Assembly: GCF_026210795.1 (NCBI RefSeq)
Contig: NC_089433.1
Location: 4,402,001-4,466,000, forward strand
Length of the DNA: 64,000 nt
Source of the DNA: Rhizophagus irregularis
Taxonomy: Eukaryota
Direction of reading: 5' to 3'
Shown: in pieces, positions 7,557-46,518 of the stretch
Numbering within the stretch: the first letter of the stretch is position 1
Layout of the letters: every line of letters starts with the position of its first letter
The notes under the pieces: generated by a model
Databases searched by the model: none
Told to the model about the DNA's origin: nothing
Seen by the model: the letters and a program-made list of their open reading frames with translations, nothing else
Translations under genes and position numbers: made by a program

Positions 7557-7650
7557 AAGTCCACCTCTTTTACATATTATAATTAACAAAGTATCAAAGG
7601 GTGAAAGCGAAAGTGTCCGCATCGTGACGAGACAGCCTAAATTTTCAAAA

Positions 7651-14172: not shown

Positions 14173-15890
14173 TGCCAGTTTCACAGATTTTTATAGACCC
14201 TACATTTAATAAACAAATCGAACAAAATTATATCCTTCAACAAATCTATTACCATCCATGTGGATATTATCGTACTCCTGAAAAACTTTGGGCTAAAGTG
14301 CAAGCTGAGGGCCATGATTTTAACATATCTGATATTACAGAGTGGTTGCATTGTCACCCACGTCTGCCACCCGTGGATAAACACTTCTTTCTCATTTAAC
14401 TTTATTTCTCGTTACTTTGCTTGGTTTAGATTTTATTTTTCTTTTAACTTCTCGCTTTTCTTCTCATACATCCGTAGTATTTATTCTCAATACTACTGCT
14501 CATTCATAATATTCCCAAAATATTATGCTGCCTGTAATATTTATTCTTTCAAATATTACCATCTTATTTCTTATAAACTGCGAGAGTTCTCCTAACTTCT
14601 TATATTTCATACAATAAAATGAGAATAACTCCTTTTACTTTACTTTTCTGGACTTAATAATAATATTAATTAATTCTCAAGCATACAATGAGCATATTCA
14701 AGATAACTTTTAATAATTAATATTTATTTTATTAAATTTGAGTCAAAACTGACTGCAGAATTCCTAACGAATCCCACCTATATTTATACATTTTTAAGAA
14801 AATTATTTCTACTATTTCTAACTTTTCTACTAATAAAAATTTAAGAACAATAAGAAAATAAAGATGTATTATCATATGACTATCTCGTGACTAAACTAAA
14901 CTAAACTATAAATATTATTTTATCAGTTAATTATTTATCCATCAGTTAATTATTTATCCTTGTTCTATTTGGTCTTTTATCCATCTGCTCACGTGATTAT
15001 CCTGATTTCTCGGGTTACAGCATAAACAGGCTATATGGCAAATACACTCACCTATACCCAAGTATGTTCCACAGGTTTCTTTTAATAAGATTACTCGACC
15101 AAATATGTATCATCAAGCAGATATCTTATATATGCCCTATGATACTGTAGATAGAAAGCTGTATAAATACTGTCTGAATATTGTAAATGTTGCTAGCCGA
15201 TATAAAGCTTAAGTACCTCTAGAAGATCGCAGCTCTGCACATATTGCTAAGGCATTTAAAAAGATTTATAGCAAAGCAGACTGCCCGCTTATTTGGCCAA
15301 GAGTTTTACAAGTAGATGGGGGATCAGAATTTAAGGATGAAGTTATCCGATTAATGGATGAAAAAGGTGTACGTATTCAGGTGGGTACTACTCATAAGAG
15401 TCAGGCTATTGTTGAACGGTATAATCGAACTTTAGCAGAGAGACTTTTCAAAATACAGGATGCAAAGGAACTCCTTACAGAAGGTGTGAATACTGCCTGG
15501 GTTAAGAACCTTTCTGATATTGTGAATGAGCTAAATAATTCTAATACTCGTCTGCTAGGTATGTCTCCAGTTGAGGCAATCCAGAAAGATCAAGTGTATG
15601 CACTACCTTCAAAAATTTGGAAGGATAGACCTGTAAGTGCAGAAGAAATACGTTTACCAGCTGGTTCTCTTGTAAGATACTTACTTGATAACTCAGATTA
15701 CCGAGGTAGGAGACGTGCAACTGATCCAATATGGTCTACTAAAGTTTATACAATTGAATCTTCCACAGTTGTTGATGGGCAGCCGGTTATATATAGGTTA
15801 TCTGATGGACCTAAAAAAATATTTACTCGAGAAGAATTATTAGTTGTGCCATCTGATACTATGCTGCCTCCTACTCATATATTATATTAA
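14160..15890 (+). pseudogene. Polinton-type rve (DDE) integrase interrupted by a solo LTR; TAA at 15210-15212
   Basis: Excising 14352-15023 restores IYYHP..EWLH|KQAIWQIH..HQADIL..LQVDGGSEF..QAIVERYNRTL. Confidence 0.9.
14352..15019 (-). mobile_element. Solo LTR of the element B family
   Basis: Reverse complement of the LTR at 44182-44866, with perfect TSD GCAT (14348-14351 / 15020-15023). Confidence 0.95.
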
Positions 15891-19782: not shown

Positions 19783-19804
19783 CTTGTAAACTTTTTATAC
19801 TCCT

Positions 19805-23429: not shown

Positions 23430-26340
23430 AATTTCGAAGTTATTACTTTCGAAATGTTTGACATGAAATCCCAGGATCTAAAAAATAAAGAAAATGAACG
23501 TTAGTAAAACGTTCGTTAAAGAAAAATAAAAAAAATAACTTCAAAGTATTATTACCTTCGAAGTTCTTCCAAATGGAAGTCCGGAACCTAAAAATAGAAG
23601 AAAAATGAACGTTAGTAAATGTTCGTTAAAGAAAATTAAAAAAAAAGAACTTTGAAGTGTTATTACCTTCGAAGTTCTTTCAAATGAGAGACGGGACCTA
23701 AAAAATAAAAGAAAACGAATGTTAGTAAAACGTTCGTTAAAGAAAATTAAAAAAAAAGAAACTTTGAAGTGTTATACCTTCGAAGTTCTTTCAAATGGAG
23801 CCAGAACCTAAAAATAAAGGAAAAATGAACGTTAGTAGAACGTTCGTTAAAGAAAAATAAAATAAAAATAAAAAAGAATTTTAAAGGTTTACCTTCAAAA
23901 TTCTTTCGTCCAGAAGCCGGAGAACCAAAACCCTGCAAAAAAAACAACTGAAACGTTAGTAAACGTTTCGTAAATTAAAGTAACAAAAAAATAAGAATTT
24001 CGAAGTTTACCTTCAAAATTCTTTCGTCCAGGAGCTGGAGAACAAAAATCCTACAAAAAAAAACCAACTGAAACGTTAGTAAGTGTTTCACAAATTAAAA
24101 ACAACAAAAAAAAAATGAAGAATTTTGAAGTTTTACCTTCAAAATTCTTTTCGGGAATGATGATGACCTACAAAAAAAAAATGAAACGTTAGAAAATGTT
24201 TCGCTAAATAAAAAAAAATATAAAAGAATTTGAAGGAATTTTACCTTCAAAATTCCATCCAGAAGCCGTAAACCTGCAAAAAGTAAAAATTGAAACGTTA
24301 ATCTACGTTTCGTTCAAATAAAAAATAAAAATAAAATAATTTTGAATTTCACCTTCGAAATTCCGTCCAATCCAGGTGGCTACCAGAAAAAGAAAAAGAA
24401 ATCGAAATGTTAGTAACGTTTCGTTTAAATAAAATAAAAAAAAAAATATGTTTCGTAACGAAAAGTTCATTACGAAACTAACCATGTTGAAAATTCCGTC
24501 CAGGCTGGAACCAGAGAGCCGAAAATCTAAAAAAAAGAATAAAGAACGTTAACGTTCTTTTACAAAAATAAAATAAAATAAAGAAATAAAAGAATTTCGA
24601 AAAAATACCTTTGAAATTCAGTTCAGGAGAGTTCGGGAGAGCCGGAAACCTAAAAAAAATCGAAACGTTAATAACGTTTCGTTAAAATAAACAAAAAAAG
24701 AATAAAAAATAAAAAATAAAATTGAAGTTTACCTTCGAAATTAAAGTCCTTCGGCATCCTGGACCTATAAAGAAGAGAAAAACGAACGTTAGTGAACGTT
24801 CGTTAAAAAAAGACTCCCTTTTTTTTCGAAAGTTATTTACCTTCGAAATCAAGTATGAGACACGTACCTTCAGCGTCTTGGACCTACAAAAATGAAAACG
24901 AACGTTAGTTAACGTTCGTAAAAAAAAAACTAATAAAAAAAATATATTTTTGAAGGATATAAAGGATATAACCTTCGAAATGAAGCTCTGGAAAGCCATG
25001 GGCCTACAAAAAAAGAAAGCTGAAACGTTAGTAAACGTTTCGCTAAAATAAAAGAAAAAAAGTAAAATGAAATTTCGAAGCCTTACCTTTGAAATAAGAG
25101 ACTGGAACCTGCCTTTCGGTTTCTTGTACAGTTGTACCTACGAAAAGTAAAAAAATGAACGTTAGAATTAGTAACGTTCATTAAATAAAATAATAAAAAA
25201 AAATCGAAGATTTTACCTTCGATATGGAAGTTCTTTCGGCTTCCTTTACCTAAAAAAAAAAGAATAACGAACGTTAGTGAACGTTCGTTTAAATAAAAAG
25301 AAAAAAAAATTCGAAGGTTAAATTTACCTTCGATATAGAGACCCGGAACTCGTTTTCGGATTCCTTTACCTAAAAAAAAGGAAATATGAACGTTGTTAAC
25401 GTTCGTCAATAAAGTTAAAAAATATATATATATATTTTTTTTTTTGAAAGGTTTTACCTTCGATATGGAAGTCCGGTTTGTCTTTCGGCTTCCTTTAACT
25501 AAAAAAAAGACGAAACGTTAGTTAACGTTCGTCAATATAAATTAATTTTAAAAAAAATTAATTTTTTTTTTCGAAGGTTTATTTCACCTTCGATATAGGA
25601 GCCCAGAACTCAGTTTCGGCTTCTTTTATCTAAAAAAAATAAGACGAAACATTAGTTAACGTTCGTCAATAAAGTTAATAAAACAAAATATTTTTTTTTC
25701 AAAGGTTTTACCTTCAAAGTAAAGTCCGGAGCCATTTTTTGGCGTCAGGACCTATAAAATACAAAAACGAACGTAACTAACGTTCGTTAAAGTTAAAATA
25801 TAAAAAAAAAATATTTCGAAGATTTTTACCTTCGAAATAAGAGTCCGGAGCTGATCTTCAGCATCCAGGACCTAAAAATATGAAAACGAACGTTAGTGAT
25901 GTTCGTTAAATAAAATTAAAGATTCGGAAGTTAATATACCTCCGAATTTCAAAATCATCGATAGGTTCCATCCGGAACCTATATAATATAAAAAAAAATT
26001 ATTTTTTTTTTTAAAAAATAAATTAAGATTCAGAGGTAAGCATACCTCCGAATTCCAATATCTTTGATGGGTTCCATCCAGAACCTATATAATATAAAAA
26101 AAATTGTTTTTTTTTTAAAAAAAATAAATTAAATTTCGGAGGTAAGCATACCTCCGAATTCCAACTAAAATCATCGATAGGTTCCATCCGGAACCTATAT
26201 AATATAAAAAAAATTTTTTTTTCTCTAAAAATAATTAAAGTTTCGGAGGTGATATACCTCCAAATTAAAATTGACAATAAGCTCTATTATGTTCTTGACT
26301 TACAAACTGAACGTTAACTGATGTTCATTCAAAAAAATTT
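23430..26340 (-). repeat. Tandem array (~110-130 bp period, >20 units) of micro-exon/intron units
   Basis: Each minus-strand unit reads TTCGAAG|GTAA..T-rich..CGAACGTT(T)ACTAACGTTC..TTTTAG| followed by a ~30-50 nt exon. Confidence 0.8.
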
Positions 26341-27399: not shown

Positions 27400-30300
27400 T
27401 TTTTTTATAGGTTCGGCTTTCAGGTGGGCTTCCGAAGTATAGAAAAACCAAGTTTCGTAAGTACGAAACTTGGTTTATTTTTTTTTTATTTTTTAATTTA
27501 ATATGAACGGTTACTAACTGTTCTTTATTATTTTTTACTTTTTTTTTAGGTTCGGCCATTCGGATGGGCTTCTGAAGTATAGAAACCCCCAAAGATTCAT
27601 AAGTACGAATTCTTTGGAGTTTTTTTTTATATTTTTAATATGAACGGTTAATACTAACCATTCTTTATTATTTTTTTTTTAGATGTGGCCGTTCGGGTGG
27701 GCTTCCAAAGTATAGAAAAACCAAGTTTCGTAAGTTTAAAACTTGGTTATTTTTTTTTTGTTTATCATATGGGCCGATCCTTGGAATCTAATTTTTTTAC
27801 ACAAAAATAATTTTATTAAAGCAAATATAAATTATCATTTATATAAGAATAATAAATTTATACCAGATAATGCAAAAAAAACTAATTAATTATATAATTT
27901 TTAATTTTTTTTTAATATAAGAAATCATTAAAATTTAAAAGATCAAATATAACTCTCATGACAAAATCATTGATAATTCTTCGTAGAAATAAGCTATACA
28001 AATAAATTTACATTCATTTGAAAGAGAAAATCGAGATCTATCTAATGAATCTAAAATCAAGTGAATTGAATCACTAGTTGTTCAGTAATCACGTTCAGTA
28101 TATTATTGAATTTTATCTAAATTTGATCATTAATTACTTCACATATAGTGATTTAATTTGAATGATCTTTGCTCCCTAGTGTGATGCCAACTTTTATCTT
28201 TAAAATAAATTTAAAATAATTCATTTAATATATGTAGATGTTTAGGAATCATCAATTATATTATTAATATAAAATTTTGTAAGTTTGATAAAATCTGATA
28301 TAAAAAAATTTATTAAATACCTGTAGATGCAAGCTACACGAATGATATTATATTCATTTGAAAGAGAAAATTGAGGTCTATCTAATAAGCCTAAAATCGA
28401 ATGAATTGAATCACTGGATTGTGAATAATTACGTCTAATATATTTATTTTTAATTTTTAAATTTGATTTGACTTTGATCGTTAATTACGCCTCATCCAGT
28501 GATCCAATTTTCCTGATCTTTGATTCTTACGATAGAGCAAATTCTCAGCTTTCAAATGAATGTAAAATGATGACGTTAGCATATCTCCAGGAATAATAAT
28601 GCACGATTTTGTCACCTGCATAAAGTCCGATCTGAAAATTTTATTTCTTACCAAAAAATGCTTTCATAAGAGAATCCCAAATTCTTTTACTTTATTTAAA
28701 AGATTTTATTTGCCATTTAAGGATTTTAGTAGAATAAATCTAATGAAATAATTTTAAAAGATAAAAAACAAATATATAATTAGTTATTTTTTAAAAAAAA
28801 GAATATCTTATTATTCATTTTACAACTATTTTACATCATAATTATTTTTTATTTGCATGTATTTTTTACAAAGAAAAAACAATAAATAAAAATTATGAAA
28901 AAATATGTCTTATCTATGTATATAAAATATTAAGTTTTTTCTTTTACTTACCACTTAAAAATAACTGCTATATTTGCTTATAAACTTTTTTGTCATATTT
29001 AATAAAAGTGAATAGAAAAATGATGGAAAAGTGATGGGAGTGATGGGGAAAAAGAAATGGTTATTACCGTTATTTTTGAATATTGATTAAAAAAATTTTT
29101 TTATTTTTTATTAAATCTGAGTTACGTAAATATGTAACACATATTTAATTTAGATTTGTGTAATGTTAATCTTACTAAAATATTAAATTTTTATAAAAAT
29201 CTTAATTAGACTAATTCCAAAAATCGGCACATATGTTTTTAATATTATGAACGGTTATTAATAACCGTTCTTTACTTTTTTTTAGGATCGGATGTTCTGA
29301 AGAATGGGAAAATTCCAAGATTCGTAAGAATCTTGGATTTTTTTTTATTTTTTTTAAAAAAAATATTACAAACGGTTACTAATAACCGTTCTTTTATTTT
29401 TTATAGGTTCGGGTGGGCTTCTGTATTCTGAAGAACGGGAAAATTCCAAAGATAAGAATCTTAGATTTTTTTTTATTTTTTTAAAAAAATATTACAAACG
29501 GTTACTAATAACCGTTCTTTTCTATTTTTTAGGATCTGATGGGCTTCCGAAGAAAGGAAAACCAAGAAACCAAGATTCGTAAGTAAGTACGAATCTTGGT
29601 TTAAGTTTTTTTGTTTTTTTTTTAATATATGAACAGTTCTAACCGTTCTTTACTTTTTTTTTAGAATCTGGCAGGCTTCCAAAAAACGAAAACCCAAAGA
29701 TTCGTAAGTACGAGTACGAATCTTTAATTTTTTATTTATTTATTATTATTACGAATGGTTTACTAACCATTCTTTCTTTTTTTTATAGGTTCGGGTGGGC
29801 TTCTGAAGAATGAAAACCCAAAGATAAAGATTCGTAAGTACAAATCTTTACTTTTTTTTTCTTTTTTTTTAATTTTATTAATGAACAGTTACTAATAACC
29901 GTTCTTTTTTTTATTTTTTAGGTGCGGTAGGCTTCCGACGAATGAAAATTCAAAGATAAAGATTCGTAAGTACGAATCTTTACTTTTTTTTCTTTTTTCA
30001 AAGCTTTCTTTAAAAAAAATTTTTTTTTATTAATTAATTTATTTTCTTTATTTGAGTAGGTTTCGGCTTTGGTTGGATAGGTAATTTTCGTTTCGAACTT
30101 TTTTTTTTTAAAAAAAACAATTTATTTAGTTTTTTTCTATTTTGTAGGTTTTGACTTTGGTTTATGGGCGTTTGATAGGTGAGTTTAGTTTCGAAACTTT
30201 GTTTTCTTTTCAAAACTTTAACAAAAAATATTAATTTTATTTATTTATTTTGTAGTATCGGTTGTGATATCCTTGGGCTTTGGATATGTAAGTTTCGAAA

Positions 30301-30513: not shown

Positions 30514-31137
30514 TGTTACCGATACCTGCCACATATCAGCAGACTGAACTTATACTCAGTTCAACATTATACTTGGTTTAGATTTTATAATCTCTTAACT
30601 TCTCGCTCTCTTTCATTTATATTTCTTACGTTCTCATACATTCTCATAATTTCTCTTTTAAACTGCGAGAGTTCTCTTTACTTCTTATTACAATTCATAT
30701 AATAGTTAAACTGGGATAATTTCCCTTACTTTACTTCTCTGGACTTATAATATAATATTAATTAATTCTCAAGCGTACAATGAGCATATTCATATTTGAA
30801 TAACTTTTAATAATTAATATTTTAATATTATTTTTATTTGAGCCAAAAGTTGACTGCGGAATTCCTATCAAATCCCACCTATATTTATACATTTTTAAGA
30901 AAATTATTTCTACTATTTCTAACTTTTCTACTAATAAAAATTTAAGAATAATAAGAAAATAAAGATGTATTATCATATGACTATCTCGTGACTAAACTAA
31001 ACTAAACTATAAATATTATTTTATCGGTTCATTATTTATCCTTCGGCTAATTATTTATCCGTATTATATTTTCAGTTAACTAATTATCACTATCTAACAT
31101 TAATTTCTGTGTAATCTATCCCATATCTTCGATTACA
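30514..31137 (-). mobile_element. Solo LTR, subfamily related to the element B LTR
   Basis: TGTTA..TTACA ends, a central ~300 bp nearly identical to the element B LTR reverse complement, and TSD ACGA/ACAA. Confidence 0.85.
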
Positions 31138-32393: not shown

Positions 32394-32930
32394 CACAGGT
32401 CGAAAAGTGAAAAATCAGGCATCAATCAGTCACCAATCGGTCACCAATCAGGTACCTGATTGGTGACCGATTGGTGCCTGATTGGCATTTTCGCCAAATA
32501 CCGTCACCAATCAGGCAGTTTGCTAACTTTTGATCCAGTGATCAGAAAAAGATGAAATATAGCTCATTGGAATCGTCTCAATATGACGAATCTAATGGTA
32601 GTAAAATCGCATCTCTAGGATTAATACTTGATGGGAAATTAAGTAAAATATAAAAATGAAAATGTATCATTTATATTTTATTTAATTTTTTATTAACTAT
32701 CAATCCTAGAGATGCGATTTTACTACCATTAGATTCGTCTTGTTGAGACGATTCCAATGAGCTATATTTCATCTTTTTCTGATCACTGGATCAAAAGTTA
32801 GTAAACTGCCTGATTGGTGACAGTATTTGGCGAAAATGCCAATCAGGCACCAATCAGTCACCAATCAGTCACCAATCAGCTACCTGATTGGTGACCGATT
32901 GGTGCCTGATTTTTCACTTTTCGACCTGTG
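32394..32930. mobile_element. Fold-back MITE (CAC-terminated, 3-bp TSD)
   Basis: CACAGGTCGAAAAGTG...CACTTTTCGACCTGTG with arms of ~250 bp and TSD ATA/ATA. Confidence 0.92.
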
Positions 32931-33604
32931 ATAATTAATTTGTTTGTTTTTAATATTTGGCAATTACATTTGATGGTTGAATTTTATCATCTTTTCATAC
33001 TTGATATTCGACCGTTTACAATGGTAAATGCTTCGGAATTGAAAAACAGAAGATGAAATATTATATATGTAGACTACATTGTATGTTAGTGTTAAATATA
33101 TTGTATACGTAGGCGAAATATAGTATTAAATATATTGTAGGTGAAATAGGATATTATTAGTATTAAATATATATTATATATTAAATAAAATACAATTTTA
33201 TGAATTAATGTTCAGTATAAAAATGCTATCTGAAACTTATGCGAAACTTAACCAAAATTTAGACGAGTGGCAGTCTGAGTGGTAACACTCGATAAAAACT
33301 TTTGGTTAGAAGATTCGTCCAACTTCGACCGGATTTTAGCCATAATTCGGGCCAAATTTGCCTATACGAAACCTGGCCAAATTGGACTATTTTGACTAGT
33401 AGTACCAGATATTATTCAATCACATATTGAGTCAAATATATGGCATGAACATAAATTTATTATAGAGCCAACGCTTTTTAAACAAGATGATATTTGATTA
33501 AATATTTTTGATTTCAATATGCAAAAATCAATGCAAAATTGTATAGAAAAATATGTTAAAAAAGAAAAATTTAATAAGAACTTAACAATCGAAAGGCTAT
33601 ACGT

Positions 33605-34310
33605 TGTAACCTGAGAAATCAGGATAATCACGTGAGCGGATGAAAAGACTGAATGGGACAAGGATAAATAATTAACCGAAGGATAAATAATTAACCGAAG
33701 GATAAATAATTAGCCGAAGGATAAATAATTAACCGATAAAATAATATTTATAGTTTAGTTTAGTTTAGTCACGAGATAGTCATATGATAATACATCTTTA
33801 TTTTCTTATTATTCTTAAATCTTTATTAGTAGAAAAGTTAGAAATGGTAGAAATAGTTTTCTTGAAAATGTATAAATATAGGTAGGATTCGTTAGGAATT
33901 CCGCAGTCAGTTTTGACTCAAATTTAATAAAATAAATATTAATTATTAAAAGTTATCTTGAATATGCTCATTGTACGCTTGAGAATTAATTAATATTATT
34001 ATTAAGTCCAGAAAAGTAAAGAAAAGGGAATTATTCTCGTTTTGTTGTATGAAATATAATAAGAAGTTAGGAGAACTCTCGCAGTTTATAAGAAATGAAG
34101 TGGTAATATTTGAAAGAATAAATATTACAGGAAGCATGATATTTTGGGAATATTATGAATAAGTGGTAGTATTGAGAATAAATACTACGGATAAATGAGA
34201 AAGAAAGCGAGAAGTTAAAAGAAAAATAAAATCTAAACCAAGCAAAGTAACGAGAAATAAAGTTAAATGAGAAAGATGTGTTTATCCACAGGTGGCAGAC
34301 GTGGGTGACA
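33605..34310 (+). repeat. 5' LTR of element B
   Basis: TGTAAC...GTGACA; has one more 19-bp GGATAAATAATTAACCGAA unit than the 3' LTR. Confidence 0.97.
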
Positions 34311-35775
34311 ATTTGGTGCAATGCTCTCGAGAAAGGAAATGATCAATGAATAAAAGAAATGAAATATGATCATTCTGACTATCTTCATATAGTTAGGTAC
34401 CTACGTGATATTCCTAGAGGATCTGGACTTGAGTATAAAAAGAAAAAAAGTTATTAAGTGTACAATGAGAAATAAAAGAAGTACAAGTAATGAAGGATAA
34501 TCAAAGCATGTGTTGCTTGTGATTAGGAGATTTATCAGGAAATTATGAAGTTTATCATAAGAAATTGAAAGAAGTACATGTTAGTATGAGAAAGAACTAA
34601 CACGAATGAAAGAATAGATATTAAATGATGTATAAGCCTGATAAATAAGAAATAAAAGTTGTTAATAACAAACCTAAAAACTACCATACCTCGATGTGAA
34701 GGTAGAGGAAAGCCTAGTATAGGTTATTGGAAGTAAAAGGAGATAATTCTATAAGAATTATTGGAGTTAAGTTAGTCACGATAATGGACTATAAAAGAAA
34801 ATAAGACCGTATCGAGATTTCACGGTAAGAAAGTAAATCTAACGCAAAAGTTGCGGGTGAACTATAAACCCAAGAGGTTGCGTGGGAACCTTATAAGAAA
34901 AACACTAGTGGTTATGTGGGAACCTTTAAAACACTATAAGATTGTAAGTTGTGGGTTAAGCTGTAATAAACCCTCTAGATTGTAAGTTGCGGGTTAAACT
35001 GTAAGAAACCCCCATTATTATTATTGTACGTTGTGGGTAAAGCGGTGTTAAACCCTCATATTAATTTATTTTTGAAGAAACTTGCTGGTCAAGTAAGAGA
35101 ATAATAGAAAAAATAGTTGTGTCACCAGGGGCGTTTGTCAACAGAAATTTCAGTACATTGATCGCTTAAAAATCTGTGGCTATCCAATTATAATAAGAAA
35201 ATAATGAAAGAAATAAGAGAAAGTATAAGTCACGTGGTGAGGCGCAGTAAAATATATATATAGACCTCCCCAGTCTGAGGAGATTGTGGACTTAGATTAT
35301 TTTTAGAAAAATAAAGTTAGTATATAGACCTCCCCAGAGCTGAGGAGATTACGTAAGAATATTATGTGAGAAGTCATGTGAGTAGTACAAATCACATGAA
35401 AAGTAGGTCATATAAAGCGCAGTAAAGTGACGAAAAGAATAAAATGATGCATACCTTGATGCAGTGGAATAAAAATAAAAATGCGAAAAATTGAAATTTA
35501 AAAGGAAAAAGGGTTGTATTTATAATTTTTGGAGTAACACAGATCATGTGTTAAGAGAAAGAAAATGAAAGAAATGAAAGAAAATATAAGTCACATGATA
35601 GGGCGCAGTAGATGAAATGAAATTAGGAGAAGTATGAGAAGTACATGTAATAAATAAGAAAAATATCGATAAATAAAGAAGTAAAATATTTAAAATAAGT
35701 TATAAAAAGTATGGATTTATATTGTAAAAAGAATAAAAGTGTAATTATATTTTGAAAATAAAATAAAGCATTAAA

Positions 35776-36036
35776 ATGGAGATACCAATATTTTATGGCG
35801 TAATAGGAGAAAATCCAAAAGAATGGACAAATCAAGTAGAAAAATATCTGTCAAAGATAGGAATTAAAGACGATAAAAGAATATTTAAGATTGCGAAGAC
35901 ACATTTGTTAGGAAATGCGCTACAATGGTTTGAAAATGAAGGAATGTGTATTACAGATTGGGATAAGAATGAGATCAAATGGTTGAACTTAAAATTTAGA
36001 ATAATTGATAGATATTCAAGTGACAATAGAAGCTGA
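35776..36036 (+). CDS. Stand-alone mini Gag capsid N-terminal-like ORF (86 aa)
   Basis: IPIFYGVIGENPKEWTNQVE..AKTHLLGNALQWF parallels IPLFYGKEEEDVSDWIRQFE..AAAHLRGAAAQWY in the main Gag. Confidence 0.7.
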   Translation: MEIPIFYGVIGENPKEWTNQVEKYLSKIGIKDDKRIFKIAKTHLLGNALQWFENEGMCITDWDKNEIKWLNLKFRIIDRYSSDNRS

Positions 36037-36505: not shown

Positions 36506-39500
36506 ATGTCTGATGTATACGATGAATTAGAAGAGATTAAAAATAGACACGAAATAGAAAAACATAATGAATCAAGAAAAGAGTATCAAGTAGATCCTTC
36601 ATGCCTAAAATGTTATAGTACTGATGGAATAGAGATAGGAGATTGGTTTAAAAGATTTTGGAAGATTTTCCAAAAGGTAATATTAGAAGCAATGAGTTAT
36701 AACAGAAATACATATGTAAAATTAATGGAATACATAACACTAACAAGAAAGGATGGGGAAGAAAGTTATCCATCTAGTAAGAAGAAAAGAAATAGAGAAT
36801 TTGAGAAAATGAGAAAAGAAGGAGAAAAACTGTTAGATATAGTTGTAAGGTCAATTAGGTATAGAAACAAATCAGATTACAGAAAAATGGGAATTATATC
36901 AGTGATAAAAGTGATCTGTGAACATTACATATTGAGTGAAGATAATGAGTATATATTAGACGATCGAACAGAAGAGAATCTATTGGGAAATAGGGAATTG
37001 TTAACATATAGATATATTATAGAAGATGATGAATTAGATGTGAGATTTGCAAAATTTGAAGAGTGGTTAGAAAAAACAGAATCAATAACCATTAAAAACA
37101 AAGGATATGGTACTATGAGATATTTCAAAGAAATATTGCATCTAGAAGAAAATATAGTAGAAGAAGAAAATAGAGAGAAAGTCAAGAAATTTCAGAAAAG
37201 TATAACATATCAATGGTGGGATGGAAATAAATACCCAAAACCATGGATGAACGATGAGTTAACAGATAAGATAATAGAGAAAATTATTGAAACAAAAGGT
37301 TTTGTTGAAGAACAAAGTGATGTAGGAGAACTAGAAAGTTCAGATGATTTAGGAGAATCAAGTTCAAATGAAGGAGATGAACATATAGAAAGAATATACA
37401 GAAATTATTGGTTAGAAAATGGTTATGAGATTGATATTGAAGAAATAAGACGAATAATAAATTTTAGAGTGGAATATGAAATAATGAAAACTAAAGAATT
37501 TATGAGTTTTTACAAAACTATTGAAGAATTAGATGACAAAGGAATAAGAGAAGAATTAAGAATATGGCATTATATGTATACAATAGAATGTCCGTTATGT
37601 AACAAAATGATACTGAAAAAGGAAGCAGTAAAATACAATAAAGAATTTACAGGAGAAATATGTAAAAATTGTTCTGAGAGAGAGGAGAATGATGTTAGTG
37701 AAGCAGAACTAAGAGTAAAAAGAATACAGAAAATATGCGAAGGAGCAGAAGTTGAAGTAACGGAAGGAGAAATATTACGAATGATAAATATGGGTTATAC
37801 AGATGGAGAAATCTTAAATTGGGAGTTTATAAAGTTATTCCAAGAAAATAAGAATGAATTGGAGGGAGTCATAAAAGAAATATTAGTTAAATATTTAGAA
37901 AAACAAATAGAGACAGAGGAAAACAACGAAGAAGAGGATACAAATGATTCAGAAAAGATTGGAGAAATATTAGATCCAGAAGAATATGAGATTTGGGAAG
38001 AAAATTCTGAAGACTTCGATGAAAATGGAGTCGGAAATAATGATGAAAATATTATAAATACAGAAGGTTTTGGCTTAAGTCAAAATTCAGATTCGAATAA
38101 TTCGTTGAATATTAAGGATTCTGATATTGAAAATTTTGATACAGAAAGTGAACTATCTGATTACAATTTACAGGAGAATATATTGTTGAACATGGCGACT
38201 GAAGCTCAAATGAAAAGAATAGTTGAGAATGCTTTAAGATATCCACCTAATACTTTGGATGCAGCAGTAGGGGCAGGAGCACACTTAGTAGATAGGATTG
38301 AAAATGCAGGAAATGAAGCCAGAGGAATAATTAATATACCATTATTTTATGGAAAAGAAGAAGAAGATGTTAGTGATTGGATTAGACAATTTGAAGTAGC
38401 ATTTGCAGCAATTGGAAAAGCAGCAGGACCTAATGGTGGAAGACAAGCGACATTCGCAGCAGCACATTTAAGAGGAGCAGCAGCACAATGGTATCATGAA
38501 ATGAGAGAAGCGAATGCAGGTCATTTAGTGAATTGGGCGGATGCAGATAATGATAATGATTTGAAACATAGAATTAAAAGAAGATTTACCAGAGAAGATG
38601 TTAGAAGAAGAAAAATGTTAGAATTGAGAAAAACTAAACAAGGAATAAATGAAAATGTCGATGATTATACAAGAAGATTTAGACAAGTATTAAGAGTAGC
38701 GACAAGAGGTCATGCATTAGCTGAAAAATATCAAGTAGATTTTTATATTGAAGGGTTAGAAGCAACAGTAGGATACCAAGTTAGAAGACAGAATCCAGCA
38801 AATTTAAATGATGCAATAAATTTAGCAAGAAGAGAAGAAGAAGCAAGAAATGAATTATTTAGAAAAGCAGGAAATATACCAGATAGAGTTTATCCGGAGA
38901 TTGGAAAAGGATATATTGAAGAACGAAATGTTGGAACAAATGTCAGACATAATAAACCATTAAATGAGAATTATGAAGATGAGCTAGCGGAAAAATTAGA
39001 GAAAATGAGAATTGCCAAATTGGAAAAACAAGTACGAAATATGGAAAGGGAGTTGAATAATAATGGGAATAGAAACCAATTGAATCAGAGAAGAAATAAT
39101 GGAGCACCGATTAATTATGATGAAATAACTTGTTTTAGGTGTAATAGAAGAGGTCATTTTGCGACTAGATGTCCATTAGGAAATAATATCAGAAGAAACG
39201 AGAGAAGAGTTAATTTAATAGATATAGAAGACCGTGAAGAAGATTATGACTACGAAGATGAAGAATCAGATGATGATTATGACCATGAAAATAATGAATA
39301 TAATAATTCACAATTGTATAATTACGATCGTGATTTGTATGAAAAAGACAACCCAGTACAAGAAAGAAGAAGAAGTAATAGAATAAATCCTGTACAAGGA
39401 TGGAAAGTCTTTGGAAAACCAGATTTAGATAAAGAAATTGCGGAAAGGGGAAAGGAAGAATATAAATATAGAAATAGAAGAGAAGTTCCAATGGAAGAAG

Positions 39501-39781
39501 ATGTGGGAGATGAACAACCAATGTACGATAGACCAATAGGACCAGATAATACGAATATCCCAAAAAGATATAAATGGAGTAAAAAGAAAGGAGGATATTA
39601 CGACACAATGGAAGGAATAAATAGATGGAAAGAAGCAGGAGGAAAACGCAAACCAAGAGAAGATAAAATTACAGGAGTTAGATCAAAAGATCCAGTAGAT
39701 TATGGAAATCTACTTAATATTGTAGAACAACAAGGAAGAATGATAAAGAAAATGATAAGAAAAGGAGATAAAATGGAGTGA
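36506..39781 (+). CDS. Element B Gag (1091 aa) with ~560-aa acidic N-terminal extension
   Basis: Capsid motifs, KQGINENVDDYTRRF and the CFRCNRRGHFATRC knuckle. Confidence 0.92.
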   Translation: MSDVYDELEEIKNRHEIEKHNESRKEYQVDPSCLKCYSTDGIEIGDWFKRFWKIFQKVILEAMSYNRNTYVKLMEYITLTRKDGEESYPSSKKKRNREFEKMRKEGEKLLDIVVRSIRYRNKSDYRKMGIISVIKVICEHYILSEDNEYILDDRTEENLLGNRELLTYRYIIEDDELDVRFAKFEEWLEKTESITIKNKGYGTMRYFKEILHLEENIVEEENREKVKKFQKSITYQWWDGNKYPKPWMNDELTDKIIEKIIETKGFVEEQSDVGELESSDDLGESSSNEGDEHIERIYRNYWLENGYEIDIEEIRRIINFRVEYEIMKTKEFMSFYKTIEELDDKGIREELRIWHYMYTIECPLCNKMILKKEAVKYNKEFTGEICKNCSEREENDVSEAELRVKRIQKICEGAEVEVTEGEILRMINMGYTDGEILNWEFIKLFQENKNELEGVIKEILVKYLEKQIETEENNEEEDTNDSEKIGEILDPEEYEIWEENSEDFDENGVGNNDENIINTEGFGLSQNSDSNNSLNIKDSDIENFDTESELSDYNLQENILLNMATEAQMKRIVENALRYPPNTLDAAVGAGAHLVDRIENAGNEARGIINIPLFYGKEEEDVSDWIRQFEVAFAAIGKAAGPNGGRQATFAAAHLRGAAAQWYHEMREANAGHLVNWADADNDNDLKHRIKRRFTREDVRRRKMLELRKTKQGINENVDDYTRRFRQVLRVATRGHALAEKYQVDFYIEGLEATVGYQVRRQNPANLNDAINLARREEEARNELFRKAGNIPDRVYPEIGKGYIEERNVGTNVRHNKPLNENYEDELAEKLEKMRIAKLEKQVRNMERELNNNGNRNQLNQRRNNGAPINYDEITCFRCNRRGHFATRCPLGNNIRRNERRVNLIDIEDREEDYDYEDEESDDDYDHENNEYNNSQLYNYDRDLYEKDNPVQERRRSNRINPVQGWKVFGKPDLDKEIAERGKEEYKYRNRREVPMEEDVGDEQPMYDRPIGPDNTNIPKRYKWSKKKGGYYDTMEGINRWKEAGGKRKPREDKITGVRSKDPVDYGNLLNIVEQQGRMIKKMIRKGDKME

Positions 39782-40420
39782 CTACACTCGGAGGTAAAAA
39801 AGACCAAAATAATTGGAGAAAAAGAAGTTACAACAGCAATGAAAACACAGTTTATAATAAATAATAAGGAAATCGAAGTTGTAATAGATTCAGGAGCAGC
39901 AATAAGTGTAATAACAGAGAAATTAAGAAAAGAGTTAGATATACCAATAAAAGAAAAAAGTAATATCACATGTACATTAGCAGATGGGGGAAAAATCGCT
40001 TTATTAGGAAAAGTTAATACGGAAGTAGAAGTTTATAAAGAATTAGTGATACCAGTAACATTAGATGTAATAGACTCAAAACAGAGAGAAATGATTATAG
40101 GAAATGACTTATTGGATAAATGGAATGCGAATATTAATTATAAGGAAAAGGTATTAGAGTTAGAAAATGATGAAGAAATAATAGATATACCGGTGTGGTA
40201 TATTAAACAAGTAGAAGAGTCGGAGGAATCTGACTACGAAAGTGAATCAGAAGAATCTGATTATGAACAAGAAGAAGGGAAGAAACTATATACGATGAAA
40301 GAAGTAATGAAAGGAAATAAAGAAGTAATAAGGAAAAACGAGCTCCAGAAGGATAATGAGAGTTCAAGTGAAGAAAGTTCATCTGATGATAGTGAAATAT
40401 CTAGTGAAAATGAGGATTAA
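39782..40420 (+). CDS. Element B aspartic protease, in frame behind the gag TGA
   Basis: VVIDSGAAISVI and MIIGNDLL; the frame is open from CTA at 39782. Confidence 0.9.
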   Translation, partial: LHSEVKKTKIIGEKEVTTAMKTQFIINNKEIEVVIDSGAAISVITEKLRKELDIPIKEKSNITCTLADGGKIALLGKVNTEVEVYKELVIPVTLDVIDSKQREMIIGNDLLDKWNANINYKEKVLELENDEEIIDIPVWYIKQVEESEESDYESESEESDYEQEEGKKLYTMKEVMKGNKEVIRKNELQKDNESSSEESSSDDSEISSENED

Positions 40421-40504
40421 ATTATATAAAAGGGATTAAAATTGTTCCAAAATGTAAAATTGTCAGAATAATAATAAGAAATAAAATAATAAATAAATTT
40501 TAAA

Positions 40505-42832
40505 ATGATAAGCGAAAATGGTAAAAATGAAAATAAATGGGAAAAATTCGATAAAAAGATAAATTTGGGAGAAGTAACAGGTAAAAGAAAAGATGATATA
40601 ATAAAGATAATTAAAAGTTACGAAGAAATATTTGAATATGATGAAGAAAAATTGGGAAAAGTGAATACCGTTAAACATAAAATTGAAATTAAGGAAGGTC
40701 AAGAACCGATAGCACAGAAAAGATATAAGGAGACTGAAGAAAAAGGAAAGTTTATAAAGAAAGAAATTGAACAGTTATTAAAAATGGGAAAAATTAGAAA
40801 ATCATGGAGTTCATGGGCGTCTCCAGTAACACTAGCAGGAAAGAAAACAGGAAATTATAGATTTTGCATTGACTATAGAAAATTAAATAATGTAACTAAA
40901 TCGGATGTATACCCATTACCAAGAATAGACGAATTATTAGAAAAATATAGAACGGTGAGATGGTTTACGAGTTTGGATCTAGCGGCAGGGTATCATCAAG
41001 TAGAAATGGTAGAAGAAGATAAAGAAAAGACAGCATTTATATGTTTACAAGGATTATATGAATATAATGTCATGCCATTCGGTTTAAAGAATGCACCAGG
41101 AACATTTCAGAGGTTAATGGACGAAATATTAAAAGAATATATTGGAGAATTTGTAATAGTATATTTAGATGATATAATGATTTATTCGAAAAATTTCGAA
41201 GAACATGAGGAACATATTGATAAAGTGCTGAATAAATTAAAGGAAAACAATCTGATTGTGAAATTGAAGAAATGTAAGTTTGGTGAACGAAATATAGAAT
41301 TTTTAGGACATATAGTTGGGAGAGATGGTTTAAAACCAGATGTGAAGAAAGTGGAGAAGATTAAAGAAATAAAGATACCAGAAACTGTTACACAAGTAAG
41401 ATCATTTTTAGGATTGTGTTCGTATTATAGAAGATTTATAAAGAATTTTGCGAAAATAGCAAAGCCTTTATATCACTTAGTAAAGAAAGATGTACCATTT
41501 GAATGGACAGAGAAACAGCAAGAAGCATTTGAAGAATTAAAAATAAGATTAATGGAGAAACCAGTATTAGATCACCCTAATTTTGAAAAGGAATTTATAT
41601 TGATTACAGACGCATCAGGAGAAGGGTTAGGAGCAGTGTTATCTCAGAAAAACGAGGAGAATAAAGAATTTGTTATCGCTTACGCTAGTAGAAGTTTAGT
41701 GGGAGCAGAAAAGAATTATGCAATAACAGAATTAGAATGTTTAGCAATATTCTGGGGGATCAAGTATTTCCATAAGTTCTTAGCAGGAAGAAAGTTTACA
41801 GTTATAACAGATCATGCTGCATTAAAAGGATTAATGAATGCTAAAGTACCTACAGGAAGAAGAGCAAGATGGGTAATGGAGTTACAACAGTATGATTTCG
41901 AAGTAATACATAGAAGTGGTAAAGAAAATAAGAATGCAGATGCGTTATCAAGACTAGAATTTGAGGAGAAAGTTATAAAAAGGGACCCTGGAGGCTCAAG
42001 TCAAGAAATAATGAAAATGGAACATAATAAAGAGAAAAAGCTGAGATATGTTAGATCAGGAAATGAATGGTTCGACGCTAGAAGATTTAAGGGAAAATGG
42101 GATGATATGAAATATTTTAATGATAAAGAAGCGATATTACTGAACTTAGAAGAAAAGACAGAAAAAGAATTATTAAAGAAATTAGAAAGGAAGAGTAAAC
42201 CACAGATTATTATTGTTGATGGGGTTGATGGTATAGGGAAATCCACCATAGTAGAAAATATAATTAAACGATTAAAAGAAAAGGATGATTTAAAAATAAT
42301 ATTTAATAAGTTTAAAAGAAGAAGAAATGATGATAAGAGATTTGAGGAACCTTCAAAAGAATATGAATGGTTATTCAGAAAACAAGTTGTAGAAGAAATC
42401 AATAGGAGAATAGTTGAATTTACAGATGAAGACATTATAATACTGGATAAGTCACCATATTGTGAATACTTTTATCAAAAGACCAAAAGTTTTGACAGAG
42501 GATATATTACTCCATATGGGAACCATAAAATGGAAAAGGAGATATTTAAATATAAAGATATTATAGATAATGCGATAATAATTTTCTTAGAGAATAAAGA
42601 ATGTTGGAATAATTATATTGAAAGAGAAACTAAGAAAAGTAATGAAGGACATAAAACATCATATGAAACATTGAACGAAGAGGAATATATGGACATGGTG
42701 AAAATGTTTAAAGAGCATCAGAATATTTATGAGAATAAGGGGAAATATAAGAGAATTAAGATTAAAAACGATGATAAAAGTTGGAAAAAAGTATATAAAC
42801 AAGTAAAAAAAATTATTGGAAAAATAAAATGA
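40505..42832 (+). CDS. Element B RT-RNase H fused to a thymidylate/dNMP-kinase-like P-loop domain
   Basis: LDLAAGYHQ, YLDD, TDASG and TDHAAL, then IIIVDGVDGIGKST and IIILDKSPYCEYFYQ. Confidence 0.92.
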   Translation: MISENGKNENKWEKFDKKINLGEVTGKRKDDIIKIIKSYEEIFEYDEEKLGKVNTVKHKIEIKEGQEPIAQKRYKETEEKGKFIKKEIEQLLKMGKIRKSWSSWASPVTLAGKKTGNYRFCIDYRKLNNVTKSDVYPLPRIDELLEKYRTVRWFTSLDLAAGYHQVEMVEEDKEKTAFICLQGLYEYNVMPFGLKNAPGTFQRLMDEILKEYIGEFVIVYLDDIMIYSKNFEEHEEHIDKVLNKLKENNLIVKLKKCKFGERNIEFLGHIVGRDGLKPDVKKVEKIKEIKIPETVTQVRSFLGLCSYYRRFIKNFAKIAKPLYHLVKKDVPFEWTEKQQEAFEELKIRLMEKPVLDHPNFEKEFILITDASGEGLGAVLSQKNEENKEFVIAYASRSLVGAEKNYAITELECLAIFWGIKYFHKFLAGRKFTVITDHAALKGLMNAKVPTGRRARWVMELQQYDFEVIHRSGKENKNADALSRLEFEEKVIKRDPGGSSQEIMKMEHNKEKKLRYVRSGNEWFDARRFKGKWDDMKYFNDKEAILLNLEEKTEKELLKKLERKSKPQIIIVDGVDGIGKSTIVENIIKRLKEKDDLKIIFNKFKRRRNDDKRFEEPSKEYEWLFRKQVVEEINRRIVEFTDEDIIILDKSPYCEYFYQKTKSFDRGYITPYGNHKMEKEIFKYKDIIDNAIIIFLENKECWNNYIERETKKSNEGHKTSYETLNEEEYMDMVKMFKEHQNIYENKGKYKRIKIKNDDKSWKKVYKQVKKIIGKIK

Positions 42833-42981
42833 CTACCGAAAATATTGGAGTAGGAATATATATTTACATTATACACAGGAATACAAATTATCACTGCGTG
42901 TTATTTGAAGATAAAAATATTAGGTTTATTTTACCTTTTGAAGAAGAAATAGAAGATATACTAATTAATGGAAGAAGATAA
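42829..42981 (+). CDS. 50-aa bridging ORF (ATGA overlap with pol stop; overlaps integrase ATG)
   Basis: MTTENIGVGIYIYIIHRNTNYHCVLFEDKNIRFILPFEEEIEDILINGRR*. Confidence 0.45.
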   Translation: MTTENIGVGIYIYIIHRNTNYHCVLFEDKNIRFILPFEEEIEDILINGRR

Positions 42982-44150
42982 ATATAATGAGATAATTAAA
43001 AATATAGATAATGAACAACACTATAGGATGAAAGATGGTTTGTTATATAGAATAAAGGATAATAGAGAATTGAGAGTAATAAGAAAATATGAGTTTGAAG
43101 GATTAATGTATATTGCACACGACCATGAATTATCTGGACATTTTGGAATAGATGCAACATATGAAAGGATTAGAGAGAAATATTATTGGAAAGGAATGAA
43201 ACAAGATATAGAAATATATGTTAAATCATGCGATAGTTGTCAAAGGAGAGGGAAACTGATTGGAAAACATGAATTAAATGTAATAAAAGTTAAAGAACCA
43301 TTTTACCAAATTGGAATAGATGTTGTGGGACCGTTACCAATAACAGAAAGAAATAATAGATACATAGTTACGGCAATGGATTATTTTACGAAATGGCCAG
43401 AAGCCAGAGCTTTAGAAACAGCAGGTGCTAAAGAAATTGCAAGATTCATTTATGAAGATATAATATGTAGACATGGATGTCCAAAAAAGATATTAAGTGA
43501 TAGAGGAAGTCATTTCAATAATAAATTAGTAGAACTATTAATGAAGGAATTTCAGATAAAACACAATTTTTCGACACCTTATCACCCAAAGACAAATGGA
43601 TTAATAGAAAGATTCAATAAGACACTATGTGAATCATTAGCAAAATTGAGTAACATTAAAGATTGGGATTTAAAAATACCAGGAGTTTTATTTGCATATA
43701 GAACAAAGAAGAATGATTCGACCAAGTTAAAACCAGGATATCTAATATATGGAAGGGAAATGAAGACATTATTAAATATGGAAGATGAAAATGTTACAAT
43801 AACACAAAGGATTAATAGTTTAATGGAAGATCTACCGAACATTAGAAGCCGAGCCAGAGAAAATATAGAAAAATCTCAAGAAAAACAGAAGAAATATCAT
43901 GATAAGAAATATAAGACGAAAAAGAATTTTCAAATAGGGGATAAAGTACTATAATGCAGCAAAAGAAAAACAATGGTCTGGAAAACTAGAAGAAAAATGG
44001 AAAGGACCGTATTATATACATGAAATAATTTCTAAAGGATCTTATAAAATTAAAACTATGGAGGGAAGAATACAGAAAACGCCAATAAATGGAGAATTAT
44101 TGAAGGAATATATTGACAGGTCAAGTTTTGAAGTTATAGTTAGAATTTGA
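42968..44150 (+). pseudogene. Element B integrase (separate ORF), frameshift near 43950
   Basis: HHCC, IGIDVVG, SDRG and GLIERFN; the KWKGPY tail continues in another frame to TGA at 44150. Confidence 0.92.
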
Positions 44151-44181: not shown

Positions 44182-44866
44182 TGTAACCCGAGAAATCAGG
44201 ATAATCACGTGCGGATGAAAAGACTGAATGGGACAAGGATAAATAATTAACCGAAGGATAAATAATTAGCTGAAGGATAAATAATTAACTGATAAAATAA
44301 TATTTATAGTTTAGTTTAGTTTAGTCACGAGATAGTCATATGATAATACATCTTTATTTTCTTATTGTTCTTAAATCTTTATTAGTAGAAAAGTTAGAAA
44401 TGGTAGAAATAGTTTTCTTGAAAATGTATAAATATAGGTGGGATTCGTTAGGAATTCCGCAGTCAGTTTTGACTCAAATTTAATAAAATAAATATTAATT
44501 ATTAAAAGTTATCTTGAATATGCTCATTGTACGCTTGAGAATTAATTAATATTATTATTAAGTCCAGAAAAGTAAAGAAAAGGGAATTATTCTCGTTTTG
44601 TTGTATGAAATATAATAAGAAGTTAGGAGAACTCTCGCAGTTTATAAGAAATGAAGTGGTAATATTTGAAAGAATAAATATTACAGGAAGCATGATATTT
44701 TGGGAATATTATGAATAAGTGGTAGTATTGAGAATAAATACTACGGATAAATGAGAAAAAAAGCGAGAAGTTAAAAGAAAAATAAAATCTAAACCAAGCA
44801 AAGTAACGAGAAATAAAGTTAAATGAGAAAGATGTGTTTATCCACGGGTGGCAGACGTGGGTGACA
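44182..44866 (+). repeat. 3' LTR of element B
   Basis: Near-identical to 33605-34310. Confidence 0.97.
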
Positions 44867-46518
44867 ACGTTATTAACTACAAATTAATACAACAACATGG
44901 AGAACAAATTTTCGTATATATAGATGGTTCTGTTATAAATAATGGAACAGAAAATATCGATGGAATAGCTGGTTTACATTTTTACAATAAAGATCATAAA
45001 TTAATTGACGAATTTTACATTAATATTGAACATTGGATTTCTCCAAGTAAAGCAGAAGTGACAAGTTTTATACTCGCGTTGCTTATCATTCATAATATTA
45101 ATAATGTCGAGATAATTACAGATAATGAATTTATTCTTAATTACTTTAATGAAATTATATGCAAAATCAAAATTTATAATACACACAAATTACTAAAAAC
45201 ACAGAATAACATTTATATTTGGGCTTTAATTCGACAATTTATAGATTTAAATGAAATAATCATACCAAAAATTACCAAAATCAAAGCACATGACGATAAT
45301 GTATATCATAATTTAGATCAATAAATTAAAAATCGATATTCAGATAGGAATAGGGTATATTCAGTTATTTTTAATTTTTCTCAACTCGATAAAATCGAAT
45401 ATATGCTTACATGGAATAATATTATTATTGAAAAACCGATTAGACGTTTTATATGATATTATAATGAAATTTTAAATTTAGAAAAATTTTTTAATCATCG
45501 AAGGAATCAAAAATATACATTAGATAGCGTAGAATGGGCAATTACGTTTGAATTCTTAAAGGAAAATGAAAATGTTTTACAAACTAATTTCCACACAACT
45601 AAACGACATCATTATAAAATTAAGAATTTAATTGAAGAAATTCTGACTGTAGAACAAAGAAAATTGATTAATTTTGATATATATAAGGATTGGAAATGTC
45701 CTGTCTGTGAGCGAAAGAAAGAAACTTTTGGCCATGTTTGGCGTTGTTATTCAAATCGTAAAAGAATGCGAAATATTATATATTATTCAATAATATGTTT
45801 AATTGAAAAAATTAAAGAATACGATTTATATACTTTTGATGAAGCAAAAATAATCGACTTATTTATAAACAAATCTTTTGGTAAAGTTAAAGTTAATGAT
45901 AATAAATTAACTTTCATTGATATTATTAAAGGAAAACTCTTAGCTGATTTCTTACGACAAGAAATAAAAATGACTAAAGCTCATATATTCGAAACTGGAG
46001 TTAAATTTTTAGATTTCGTTTTTAAATCTACACATAAGATTTGGCTTGATAGATGTGATTTACAAAAAGATAAAGAAAGAAGTTTAGGTGTTACTAAAGA
46101 GGATAAAAAACATTATAGTTATAATAAAAATATGGTTAAAAAAGGTATTAATCATAAAGTCTATCAAAATGTAAAAGGGCTTTTGAATTATATATACTTT
46201 AATATAGAATCTTTGGATTTTATAGTTCGTGTTAATCAGTATACTTTTCAAATATTTTTTCTTTTATTTTATTTTATTTTTTCTTAGGTAATTTCTTTTA
46301 TTTTCGCCCTTATGGGTTGATTTTTTTTTCTTTTATTTCTATTTTTGTTTAGTTATCCTGGTTCATCAGGGATATATTAATTTTTAATATATTCTAGGTA
46401 TTTAGTTTTGTATTATTGTTATGTAGATTTTTTCTATTACTGTTATCAAACTAATGACATGTGCTGTAATATTTCTTTTATAATAAATAAATTTTTGTTA
46501 ACCAGTAAAAAAAAAAAA

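Follow-up and report, generated by a model that had tools for sequence, protein, structure and literature searches.

Can a retrotransposon carry a nucleotide kinase of its own, and what would it gain from it? The question is raised by a Ty3/Gypsy long terminal repeat (LTR) element in a stretch of 64,000 nucleotides (nt) of Rhizophagus irregularis DNA (contig NC_089433.1, positions 4,402,001 to 4,466,000; hereafter the window, counted from its first base). An initial annotation, made from the letters alone, had described here a reverse transcriptase (RT) and RNase H fused to an intact, in-frame domain of about 210 amino acids (aa) at 42190..42832, resembling thymidylate kinases (TMKs). We found a 779-codon open frame (40493-42832, stop to stop, first ATG at 40505) that spans RT, RNase H and the C-terminal domain. 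A P-loop domain of 213 aa (42191-42829), uninterrupted, closes the RT-RNase H frame, so the domain is intact and in frame as described, although it begins one base later, at 42191. The three motifs quoted for it (Walker A, a stretch resembling DR..S..YQ, and a lid) were all recovered as quoted. The frame is composed as follows:

40505..41956, plus strand: RT and RNase H with their own ATG, recognised by Pfam; best solved match Ty3 RT (E 1e-106); from Met 40505, 96% identity over 773 aa to R. irregularis GBC16654.1
41957..42190, plus strand: conserved linker of about 80 aa; the final 31 aa (42098-42190) weakly match the C terminus of the Nudix region of Nudix-kinase relatives
42191..42832, plus strand: P-loop kinase of TMK/deoxynucleoside kinase (dNK) fold, 213 aa, assigned from motifs, predicted fold and profiles
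42218-42247, plus strand: P-loop of the kinase, followed by a basic KRRR cluster and F62-R63
42446-42478, plus strand: DKSPY..EY.YQ motif of the kinase
42614-42628, plus strand: lid of the kinase, Y142-R145-E146

Pfam identified RVT_1 (E 5e-42) and RT_RNaseH (E 3e-37) in the window protein. A TMK match was also obtained, Thymidylate_kin (PF02223) at residues 575-666 (E 2e-4), albeit a weak one, with 21.5 bits below the cut-off of 27. Beyond the initial description, the kinase is preceded by the linker, a stop after the kinase leaves the integrase as a separate open reading frame (ORF), and in many relatives the kinase stands free in an ORF of its own.

The domain is not confined to this copy. 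Homologs made up 81 of 392 near-length candidates and 39 of 1656 longer ones and, since they are this numerous, the position of the domain next to RT-RNase H is not due to chance. All 39 longer homologs have either RNase H before the domain (34) or only an integrase after it (5). Eukaryotic homologs with a species name come from R. irregularis, R. clarus, R. diaphanus and Glomus cerebriforme, all Glomeraceae, the family to which we take Rhizophagus to belong. A metagenome scan returned 31 pattern matches in 27 loci, 22 of them Gypsy-type (52-87% identity) and 5 distant (38%). RNase H upstream or integrase downstream was present in 20 of the 22 Gypsy-type loci; the remaining two are contigs of about 1.1-1.2 kb. 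Compared with the window, omega of the kinase was 0.06-0.23 in 20 Gypsy-type loci (two more were saturated), against 0.11-0.28 for RT, 0.08-0.22 for RNase H and 0.10-0.39 for integrase, values that give only the sign and rough size of selection, because all pairs share the window sequence and synonymous divergence (dS) is high, near saturation. For the linker, omega was 0.11-0.19 in four of five loci.

Kinase distances were correlated with RNase H distances (r 0.65, 34 rows, 0 of 2000 permutations; r 0.50 and 9 of 2000 for the nine DNA-verified rows) and with integrase distances (r 0.89, 12 rows, 0 of 2000 permutations). Discordant were the NCBI models P0103 and P0106. Since its distances track those of both partners, the kinase and the element have long been passed on together. 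The view that the domain is a neutral passenger, a piece of a host gene or an artefact of assembly would agree with the broken integrase frame of the window copy, and the shared reference sequence and near-saturated dS speak in its favour as well; we nevertheless regard it as highly improbable, given 22 independent metagenome loci down to 52% identity, four named species, a kinase omega as low as that of RT, and three homolog searches that retrieved no host TMK gene. We conclude that the kinase domain is a family trait of a Glomeraceae Ty3/Gypsy lineage and is under purifying selection as strong as that on RT. Automatic annotation already names some copies thymidylate kinase. One copy (P0241, 249 aa) is deposited as an AAA ATPase of a gammaproteobacterial metagenome-assembled genome on a 3.9-kb contig; it hardly differs from a soil Gypsy-type copy and is probably fungal DNA that was binned wrongly.

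Which kind of kinase is it? According to the main text of PMC10653934, TMKs have a nucleoside monophosphate (NMP) kinase fold with core, NMP-binding and lid parts. An AlphaFold model of the domain (pLDDT 93.3, pTM 0.89) has a five-stranded core, and the predicted fold shows these three parts while fitting the dNK fold equally. Foldseek placed dCK, Giardia dAK and yeast TMK on top. In the VIA structure comparison human dGK (Z 15.3, root-mean-square deviation (rmsd) 3.2, 195 aligned), Giardia dAK (Z 14.8) and S. aureus TMK (Z 14.6, rmsd 3.5, 183 aligned) were tied; NadR kinase (13.6), complex I chains of dNK fold (12.9), adenylate kinase (12.3) and Kti12 (10.1) came lower. The model thus resembles TMK and dNK enzymes, as expected of an NMP-kinase-like fold. 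With such a fold predicted and many copies at hand, the core claim of a kinase-like domain in a retrotransposon stands. A single-sequence search of solved structures gave nothing significant. Profile evidence tilts towards TMK: phrog_761, a generic TMK profile that scores in 14 of 14 control genomes, spans domain residues 1-212 (E 1e-11), hhalign to a set of six TMK-like sequences gave a probability of 98.4%, and the Atlas neighbours are mostly phage TMK-like clusters (0.95-0.96). Profile searches of solved structures were dominated by P-loop-only matches such as FtsY; these, like the labels NB-ARC, AAA and NACHT, reach no further than the first strand and helix and were rejected for that reason.

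In TMKs, the Tyr and the P-loop Asp select deoxyribose and the Phe stacks on the base, while dNKs need a catalytic Glu after strand 2. In the hhalign alignment, Asp13 of the P-loop, Phe62 and the D-x9-YQ spacing fall on the motifs known from T. thermophilus TMK. G11, D13, G16, K17, D86, K87, E92 and Y95 were invariant in 16 of 16 rows. As in TMKs, the P-loop is of the type G-x-D-G-x-G-K-S/T, YQ lies at +9/+10 from the motif Asp, a Phe sits on the base-binding helix and the lid Arg is kept; the Gln of YQ is replaced in some Nudix-type relatives. In the region after the second strand, where a dNK would be expected to keep its Glu, we saw no conserved acidic residue, N39, K42, R43 and R45 being conserved there.

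These residues bear on the idea that the domain is a deoxynucleoside kinase of the salvage type, making deoxynucleoside monophosphates (dNMPs) from deoxynucleosides to feed reverse transcription. Enzymes of this group (dCK, dGK, Dm-dNK, Giardia dAK; PF01712) include the best or tied structural matches, viral dNKs stand high in BFVD, and Nudix-fused relatives match PF01712 over 182-183 of 203 positions (E about 2e-4, 21-22 bits against a cut-off of 27). Glu92, which we take to lie at the place of the base-reading Asp of dCK, was counted on the same side. The window protein itself, however, has no PF01712 match at E 0.1, its P-loop carries the TMK-type Asp, the catalytic Glu is apparently missing from its presumed position, and the basic cluster fits an acceptor that is already phosphorylated. 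A deoxynucleoside kinase is therefore an unlikely reading; it would give the element an activity that most fungi are not known to have.

On balance, the sequence motifs favour a TMK-like dNMP kinase, and we think it somewhat more probable than not that the domain phosphorylates dNMPs (probably dTMP, perhaps others) and so raises the supply of deoxynucleoside triphosphates (dNTPs) for the element's own reverse transcription, a role also suggested in the initial annotation. The domain would be catalytically active, with ATP-dependent conversion of a deoxy-monophosphate acceptor to the diphosphate (dNDP); host NDP kinase would finish the step from dNDP to dNTP, and a dNTP limit on reverse transcription would be relieved. 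A fused kinase would travel with RT into the particle, and a free one would be made by reinitiation on the same polycistronic RNA. The benefit would be largest at low host TMK or dNTP pools, as in resting spores and quiescent hyphae, by analogy with retroviral dUTPase, which the main text of PMC4531489 describes as important in non-dividing cells. The plus strand of the element is 45% A and 66% purine, and because of this A content the first strand demands much dTTP. At four-fold sites, A makes up 60-78% in kinase-bearing elements versus 48-57% in the one kinase-less element of the window, a single contrast and hence a hint only.

Several observations weigh against a dNMP kinase. Structure does not tell TMK and dNK apart, and of the 49 rows in the alignment used for the AlphaFold model, one was a true TMK fragment. 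The Arg of the TMK DR motif is Lys in 16 of 16 rows and in 162 of 162 motif matches (including many cluster members that are almost identical); this DK had been noticed in the window copy and is a family-wide trait rather than a defect of that copy. The TMK REP motif is absent, its place being taken by N-x-F-KRRR (aligned with N39-K40 and the KRRR cluster), and 159 of 162 matches have a Glu six residues past the motif Asp, where TMKs have a small residue. The window protein also stays below the curated cut-offs (TIGR00041 18.7 versus 83; PF02223 21 versus 27). By itself, a TMK would stop at the diphosphate. Another Gypsy element of the window lacks the kinase and is A-rich too (38%), and its presence means that not all such elements need the kinase. 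Lastly, the position of the kinase in the element also takes unrelated cargo, for example an F-box ORF, so cargo at this place need not serve DNA synthesis.

The very basic KRRR surface and the replaced DR Arg would also suit a nucleotide- or nucleic-acid-binding module with a non-metabolic task (for example action on RNA or primer ends, particle assembly or host defence), comparable to dNK-fold subunits that no longer make nucleotides. Complex I chains of this kind are among the structural matches (Z 12.9), and the F-box found elsewhere at this position is regulatory. Yet the P-loop Gly, Lys and Asp, D86 and the lid Arg are all retained, as in a working kinase, and Kti12, PSTK and other P-loop kinase families score lower (Z about 10), so that we consider such a module likewise unlikely. 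Because the TMK motifs are kept while DR, REP and the small residue are changed to DK, KRRR and Glu, a deoxy-monophosphate acceptor, possibly with an altered base preference, is favoured. Judged by its sequence, the domain is not a canonical TMK: it departs from two motifs and from the curated cut-offs. With TMKs (bacterial, fungal Cdc8 and phage; PF02223, TIGR00041, phrog_761) it shares the predicted fold, the P-loop Asp, the base-helix Phe, D-x9-YQ and the lid Arg; it differs in DK, the missing REP, the invariant Glu, a structural identity of 13-17% and the retrotransposon carrier. The relatives P0093 and P0137 pass the PF02223 cut-off. With its DK motif, the domain represents a divergent family of the TMK/dNK fold.

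Where does the kinase come from? A search of 1.84 billion representatives gave 50 matches. Nearest outside the Gypsy-type set are fusions of the kinase to a MutT-like Nudix hydrolase (37-41%; P0132 with 71 cluster members, P0135 and P0171), a pairing which indicates work on the nucleotide pool; the other outside matches are P0129 and P0144, both unplaced kinases, and a single ordinary TMK of marginal score. A Nudix box was seen only in these outside relatives, and the window protein gave no NUDIX match. The fusion could point to a different substrate, namely non-standard nucleotides (dUMP, oxidised or modified bases) handled by an ancestral Nudix-kinase pool-editing cassette, which would alter which nucleotides enter the cDNA and not their amount. 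The DK and Glu92 changes, found throughout the family, hint at a shifted substrate, and the nearest Atlas clusters are phage kinases of unclear substrate. On the other hand, the Gypsy versions lost the Nudix box and still kept the kinase under strong selection, and no base-modifying enzyme was recognised among the element proteins. Nucleotide editing is, in our judgement, quite unlikely.

The linker may hold a further link to the Nudix fusions. Over its last 31 columns it stays in register with the Nudix region's end (hhalign score 23 versus a maximum of 13 in 100 column shuffles), a weak match with a probability of 20%; alternatively, this segment may be a helix of the kinase family itself. 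Modelled on its own, the linker folded poorly (pLDDT 65), and its structural matches did not exceed Z 2.4. One Nudix-kinase lies in locus L025 (1-11745), where about ten tightly packed same-strand ORFs include a divergent RT-RNase H, a Mrr-like nuclease and a CCHC/RS-rich capsid-like ORF. Across 13.9 kb of L025 we detected no integrase, and its RT showed no relative in viral contigs (0 of 9). Locus L024 repeats part of this layout, and L022 holds a different Nudix-kinase beside a similar nuclease. The L025 type is possibly an undescribed class of reverse-transcribing element. It shares with the Gypsy elements a 13-mer, TGA-CTACACTCGG, which is identical at window 39779-39791, at L012 372-384 (before the protease) and at L025 1157-1169 (before RT); an exact match to it is present in 2 of 38 loci, and the window has a single one.

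Since the Nudix-kinases are the nearest relatives, the 13-nt junction is shared with L025 and the linker end aligns weakly, a common Nudix-kinase ancestor is likely, and the Gypsy kinase likely arose from a Nudix-kinase cassette of which most of the Nudix part was lost. In the kinase tree the deep branches do not resolve, and the Gypsy-type kinases may or may not be monophyletic (p-AU 0.44, with long branches meeting); the tree therefore gives no direction of transfer. Against phages, tblastn revealed no source for the kinase and the Nudix-type kinase had weak matches only; at least 8 distant TMK-like matches occurred among 600 scanned viral stretches, and prokaryotic genomes yielded no close source (0 of 106). 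A close host source was not found either. Tentatively, and with considerable doubt, we propose that a Nudix-kinase cassette serving the dNTP pool was traded between Glomeraceae Gypsy elements and the integrase-less polycistronic elements of the L025 type, both of which have the UGA-CUACACUCGG junction and stop-start coupling.

To see how the kinase is expressed, the remaining parts of the element are needed:

33601-33604 and 44867-44870: target duplication ACGT, 4 bp, flanking both LTRs
33605..34310, plus strand: 5' LTR (TG...CA); aligned with the 3' LTR it has 678 matches, 7 mismatches, every one a transition, and 21 gap columns
34314..34324, plus strand: probable primer-binding site, TGG 3 nt past the LTR
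35767..36036, plus strand: broken capsid-like fragment upstream of gag, which it resembles; weak Arc_capsid_dom match (E 0.0013)
36506..39781, plus strand: gag ORF of 1091 aa; a capsid domain and a CCHC knuckle, with a long N-terminal stretch that lacks annotation
39779..39791, plus strand: gag/protease junction, in-frame TGA followed by CTACACTCGG, a likely stop-readthrough site
39782..40420, plus strand: aspartic protease with its own stop (gag-asp_proteas, E 1e-10); also apart from RT in L012
42829..42981, plus strand: ORF of 50 aa whose ATG overlaps the kinase stop (ATGA); in five other loci, omega 0.11-0.39
42968..43954, plus strand: integrase (H2C2 and rve) as a separate ORF, ATG 14 nt inside the 50-aa ORF; the frame breaks before the C-terminal domain
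43938..44150, plus strand: C-terminal (SH3-like) part of the integrase, out of frame, weak match; in frame in L005, L011 and L012
44170..44177, plus strand: polypurine tract
44182..44866, plus strand: 3' LTR, followed by ACGT
14352..15019, minus strand: solo LTR of the same family with a 4-bp duplication GCAT; 631 matches, 33 mismatches

Paired LTRs, the 4-bp target duplication, primer-binding site, polypurine tract and the order gag-protease-RT-RNase H-integrase are those of canonical Ty3/Gypsy elements (Metaviridae), and among solved structures Ty3 RT is closest (360 bits; next different RT entry, 8r0s, 233 bits). The copy is young yet defective through the integrase frame break. No tRNA gene was found in the window and no primer tRNA was matched to the putative primer-binding site; Rfam had no match in the element. 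The N-terminal extension of gag (about 530 aa, 36506-38100) contains Cys motifs and has no family match; a similar start occurs in L012 and in a second element of the window. A further partial LTR of the family lies at 30654-31071 on the minus strand.

Unlike canonical elements, this one has no single protease-cut Pol polyprotein. In the window and in relatives, stops follow the protease and the RNase H or kinase, and the next ORFs start at their own ATGs, giving separate, stop-start coupled frames for protease, RT-RNase H(-kinase) and integrase, with cargo ORFs in the gap between RNase H and integrase. This split Pol is a variant layout and no ground for leaving the Ty3/Gypsy superfamily. Protease and RT are separate in the window and L012. 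The fusion of kinase to RT-RNase H, central to the initial annotation, holds for the window copy, but what is conserved is the slot between RNase H and integrase: 5 of 11 RNase H-kinase junctions in view are fused, whereas 6 have a stop and a new ATG. The kinases of L008 and L009 also start at their own ATG, and along the kinase tree the fusion state switches at least three times. Of the 19 junctions in which the kinase end could be seen, every one has a stop there. In 16 of these the ATG of the next ORF lies -20 to +5 nt from that stop (about 0.24 expected per junction, though the copies are related), and where the integrase follows directly, its ATG is within -11 to +3 in 9 of 9.

A UGA-CUA context is linked to stop readthrough. 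No stable RNA fold followed the UGA in three junctions (z +0.8 to +1.1). We infer from these arrangements that protease would be made by readthrough of the gag stop, and the remaining pol ORFs by termination and reinitiation. Splicing is made less likely by the lack of a GTRAG donor in the last 150 nt of 19 kinase ORFs. Kinase-integrase and protease-RT fusions in NCBI models (e.g., P0093, P0115) were rejected, as they miss parts of domains and look like predicted-intron joins.

Besides the kinase, the gap holds the 50-aa ORF (the window and five loci, under selection), an F-box ORF right after the kinase (L014 670-1089, before the integrase; L016 945-1128) or coiled-coil ORFs in the same place (L004 895-1140, L013 1046-1291). 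The 50-aa ORF has no Pfam, Atlas or other family match, and its reading as a Nudix N-terminus was rejected on comparison. The RNase H-integrase gap acts as a variable cargo slot in a polycistronic pol.

Several other mobile sequences share the window. A second, broken Gypsy element (2585-8913) lacks the kinase and has about 300 Cys/His-rich aa without a Pfam match after RNase H, again with a separate integrase ORF. Maverick/Polinton-like remains at 15213-19794 (minus strand) comprise a DNA polymerase B-like ORF, an endonuclease VII-like ORF and an integrase-like piece. Repeat arrays of about 110-130 nt with a palindromic core (families D4, D7, D9) occupy 23480-25918 and 27612-30024, and an inverted repeat with 261-nt arms 15 nt apart, made of 11-nt units, lies at 32394-32930. 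A degenerate RNase H-bearing sequence (44867-46287; RNase_H E 7e-9) directly adjoins the 3' LTR and, because of this, the kinase-bearing element was likely inserted into another mobile element.

Nucleotide-metabolism enzymes are known from LTR elements. The main texts of PMC5408684, PMC4531489 and PMC6431247 place dUTPase inside pol at variable positions, including between RT and integrase, in non-primate lentiviruses, in the bdelloid elements Juno, Vesta and TelKA, and in basidiomycete Gypsy elements. The present elements likewise carry a nucleotide-metabolism enzyme in pol, but a P-loop kinase would build nucleotides up where dUTPase removes them. The word kinase does not appear in the main texts of these three articles or of PMC3248453, and a retrotransposon-borne nucleotide kinase is described neither in those four main texts nor in passages of PMC8647823, PMC11952901, PMC5113988 and PMC10653934. 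In the literature searched, which left aside Repbase, GyDB, supplements and most subscription journals, no description of such a kinase was found and dUTPase was the only nucleotide-metabolism enzyme reported for LTR elements. New is thus the enzyme class; LTR elements with an accessory gene for nucleotide metabolism are known.

Since the predicted domain is small and well folded, its substrate is open to direct assay. If the exchange of a Nudix-kinase cassette proposed above is true, these would be the first retroelements with their own nucleotide-supply kinase, as in large DNA viruses, and the L025 type would be a new reverse-transcribing group. Should the domain be a dNMP or nucleoside kinase, it would represent a second, independent answer to the dNTP limit on reverse transcription, besides dUTPase, and it may explain how these elements are active in a slow-growing, coenocytic symbiont with resting spores.

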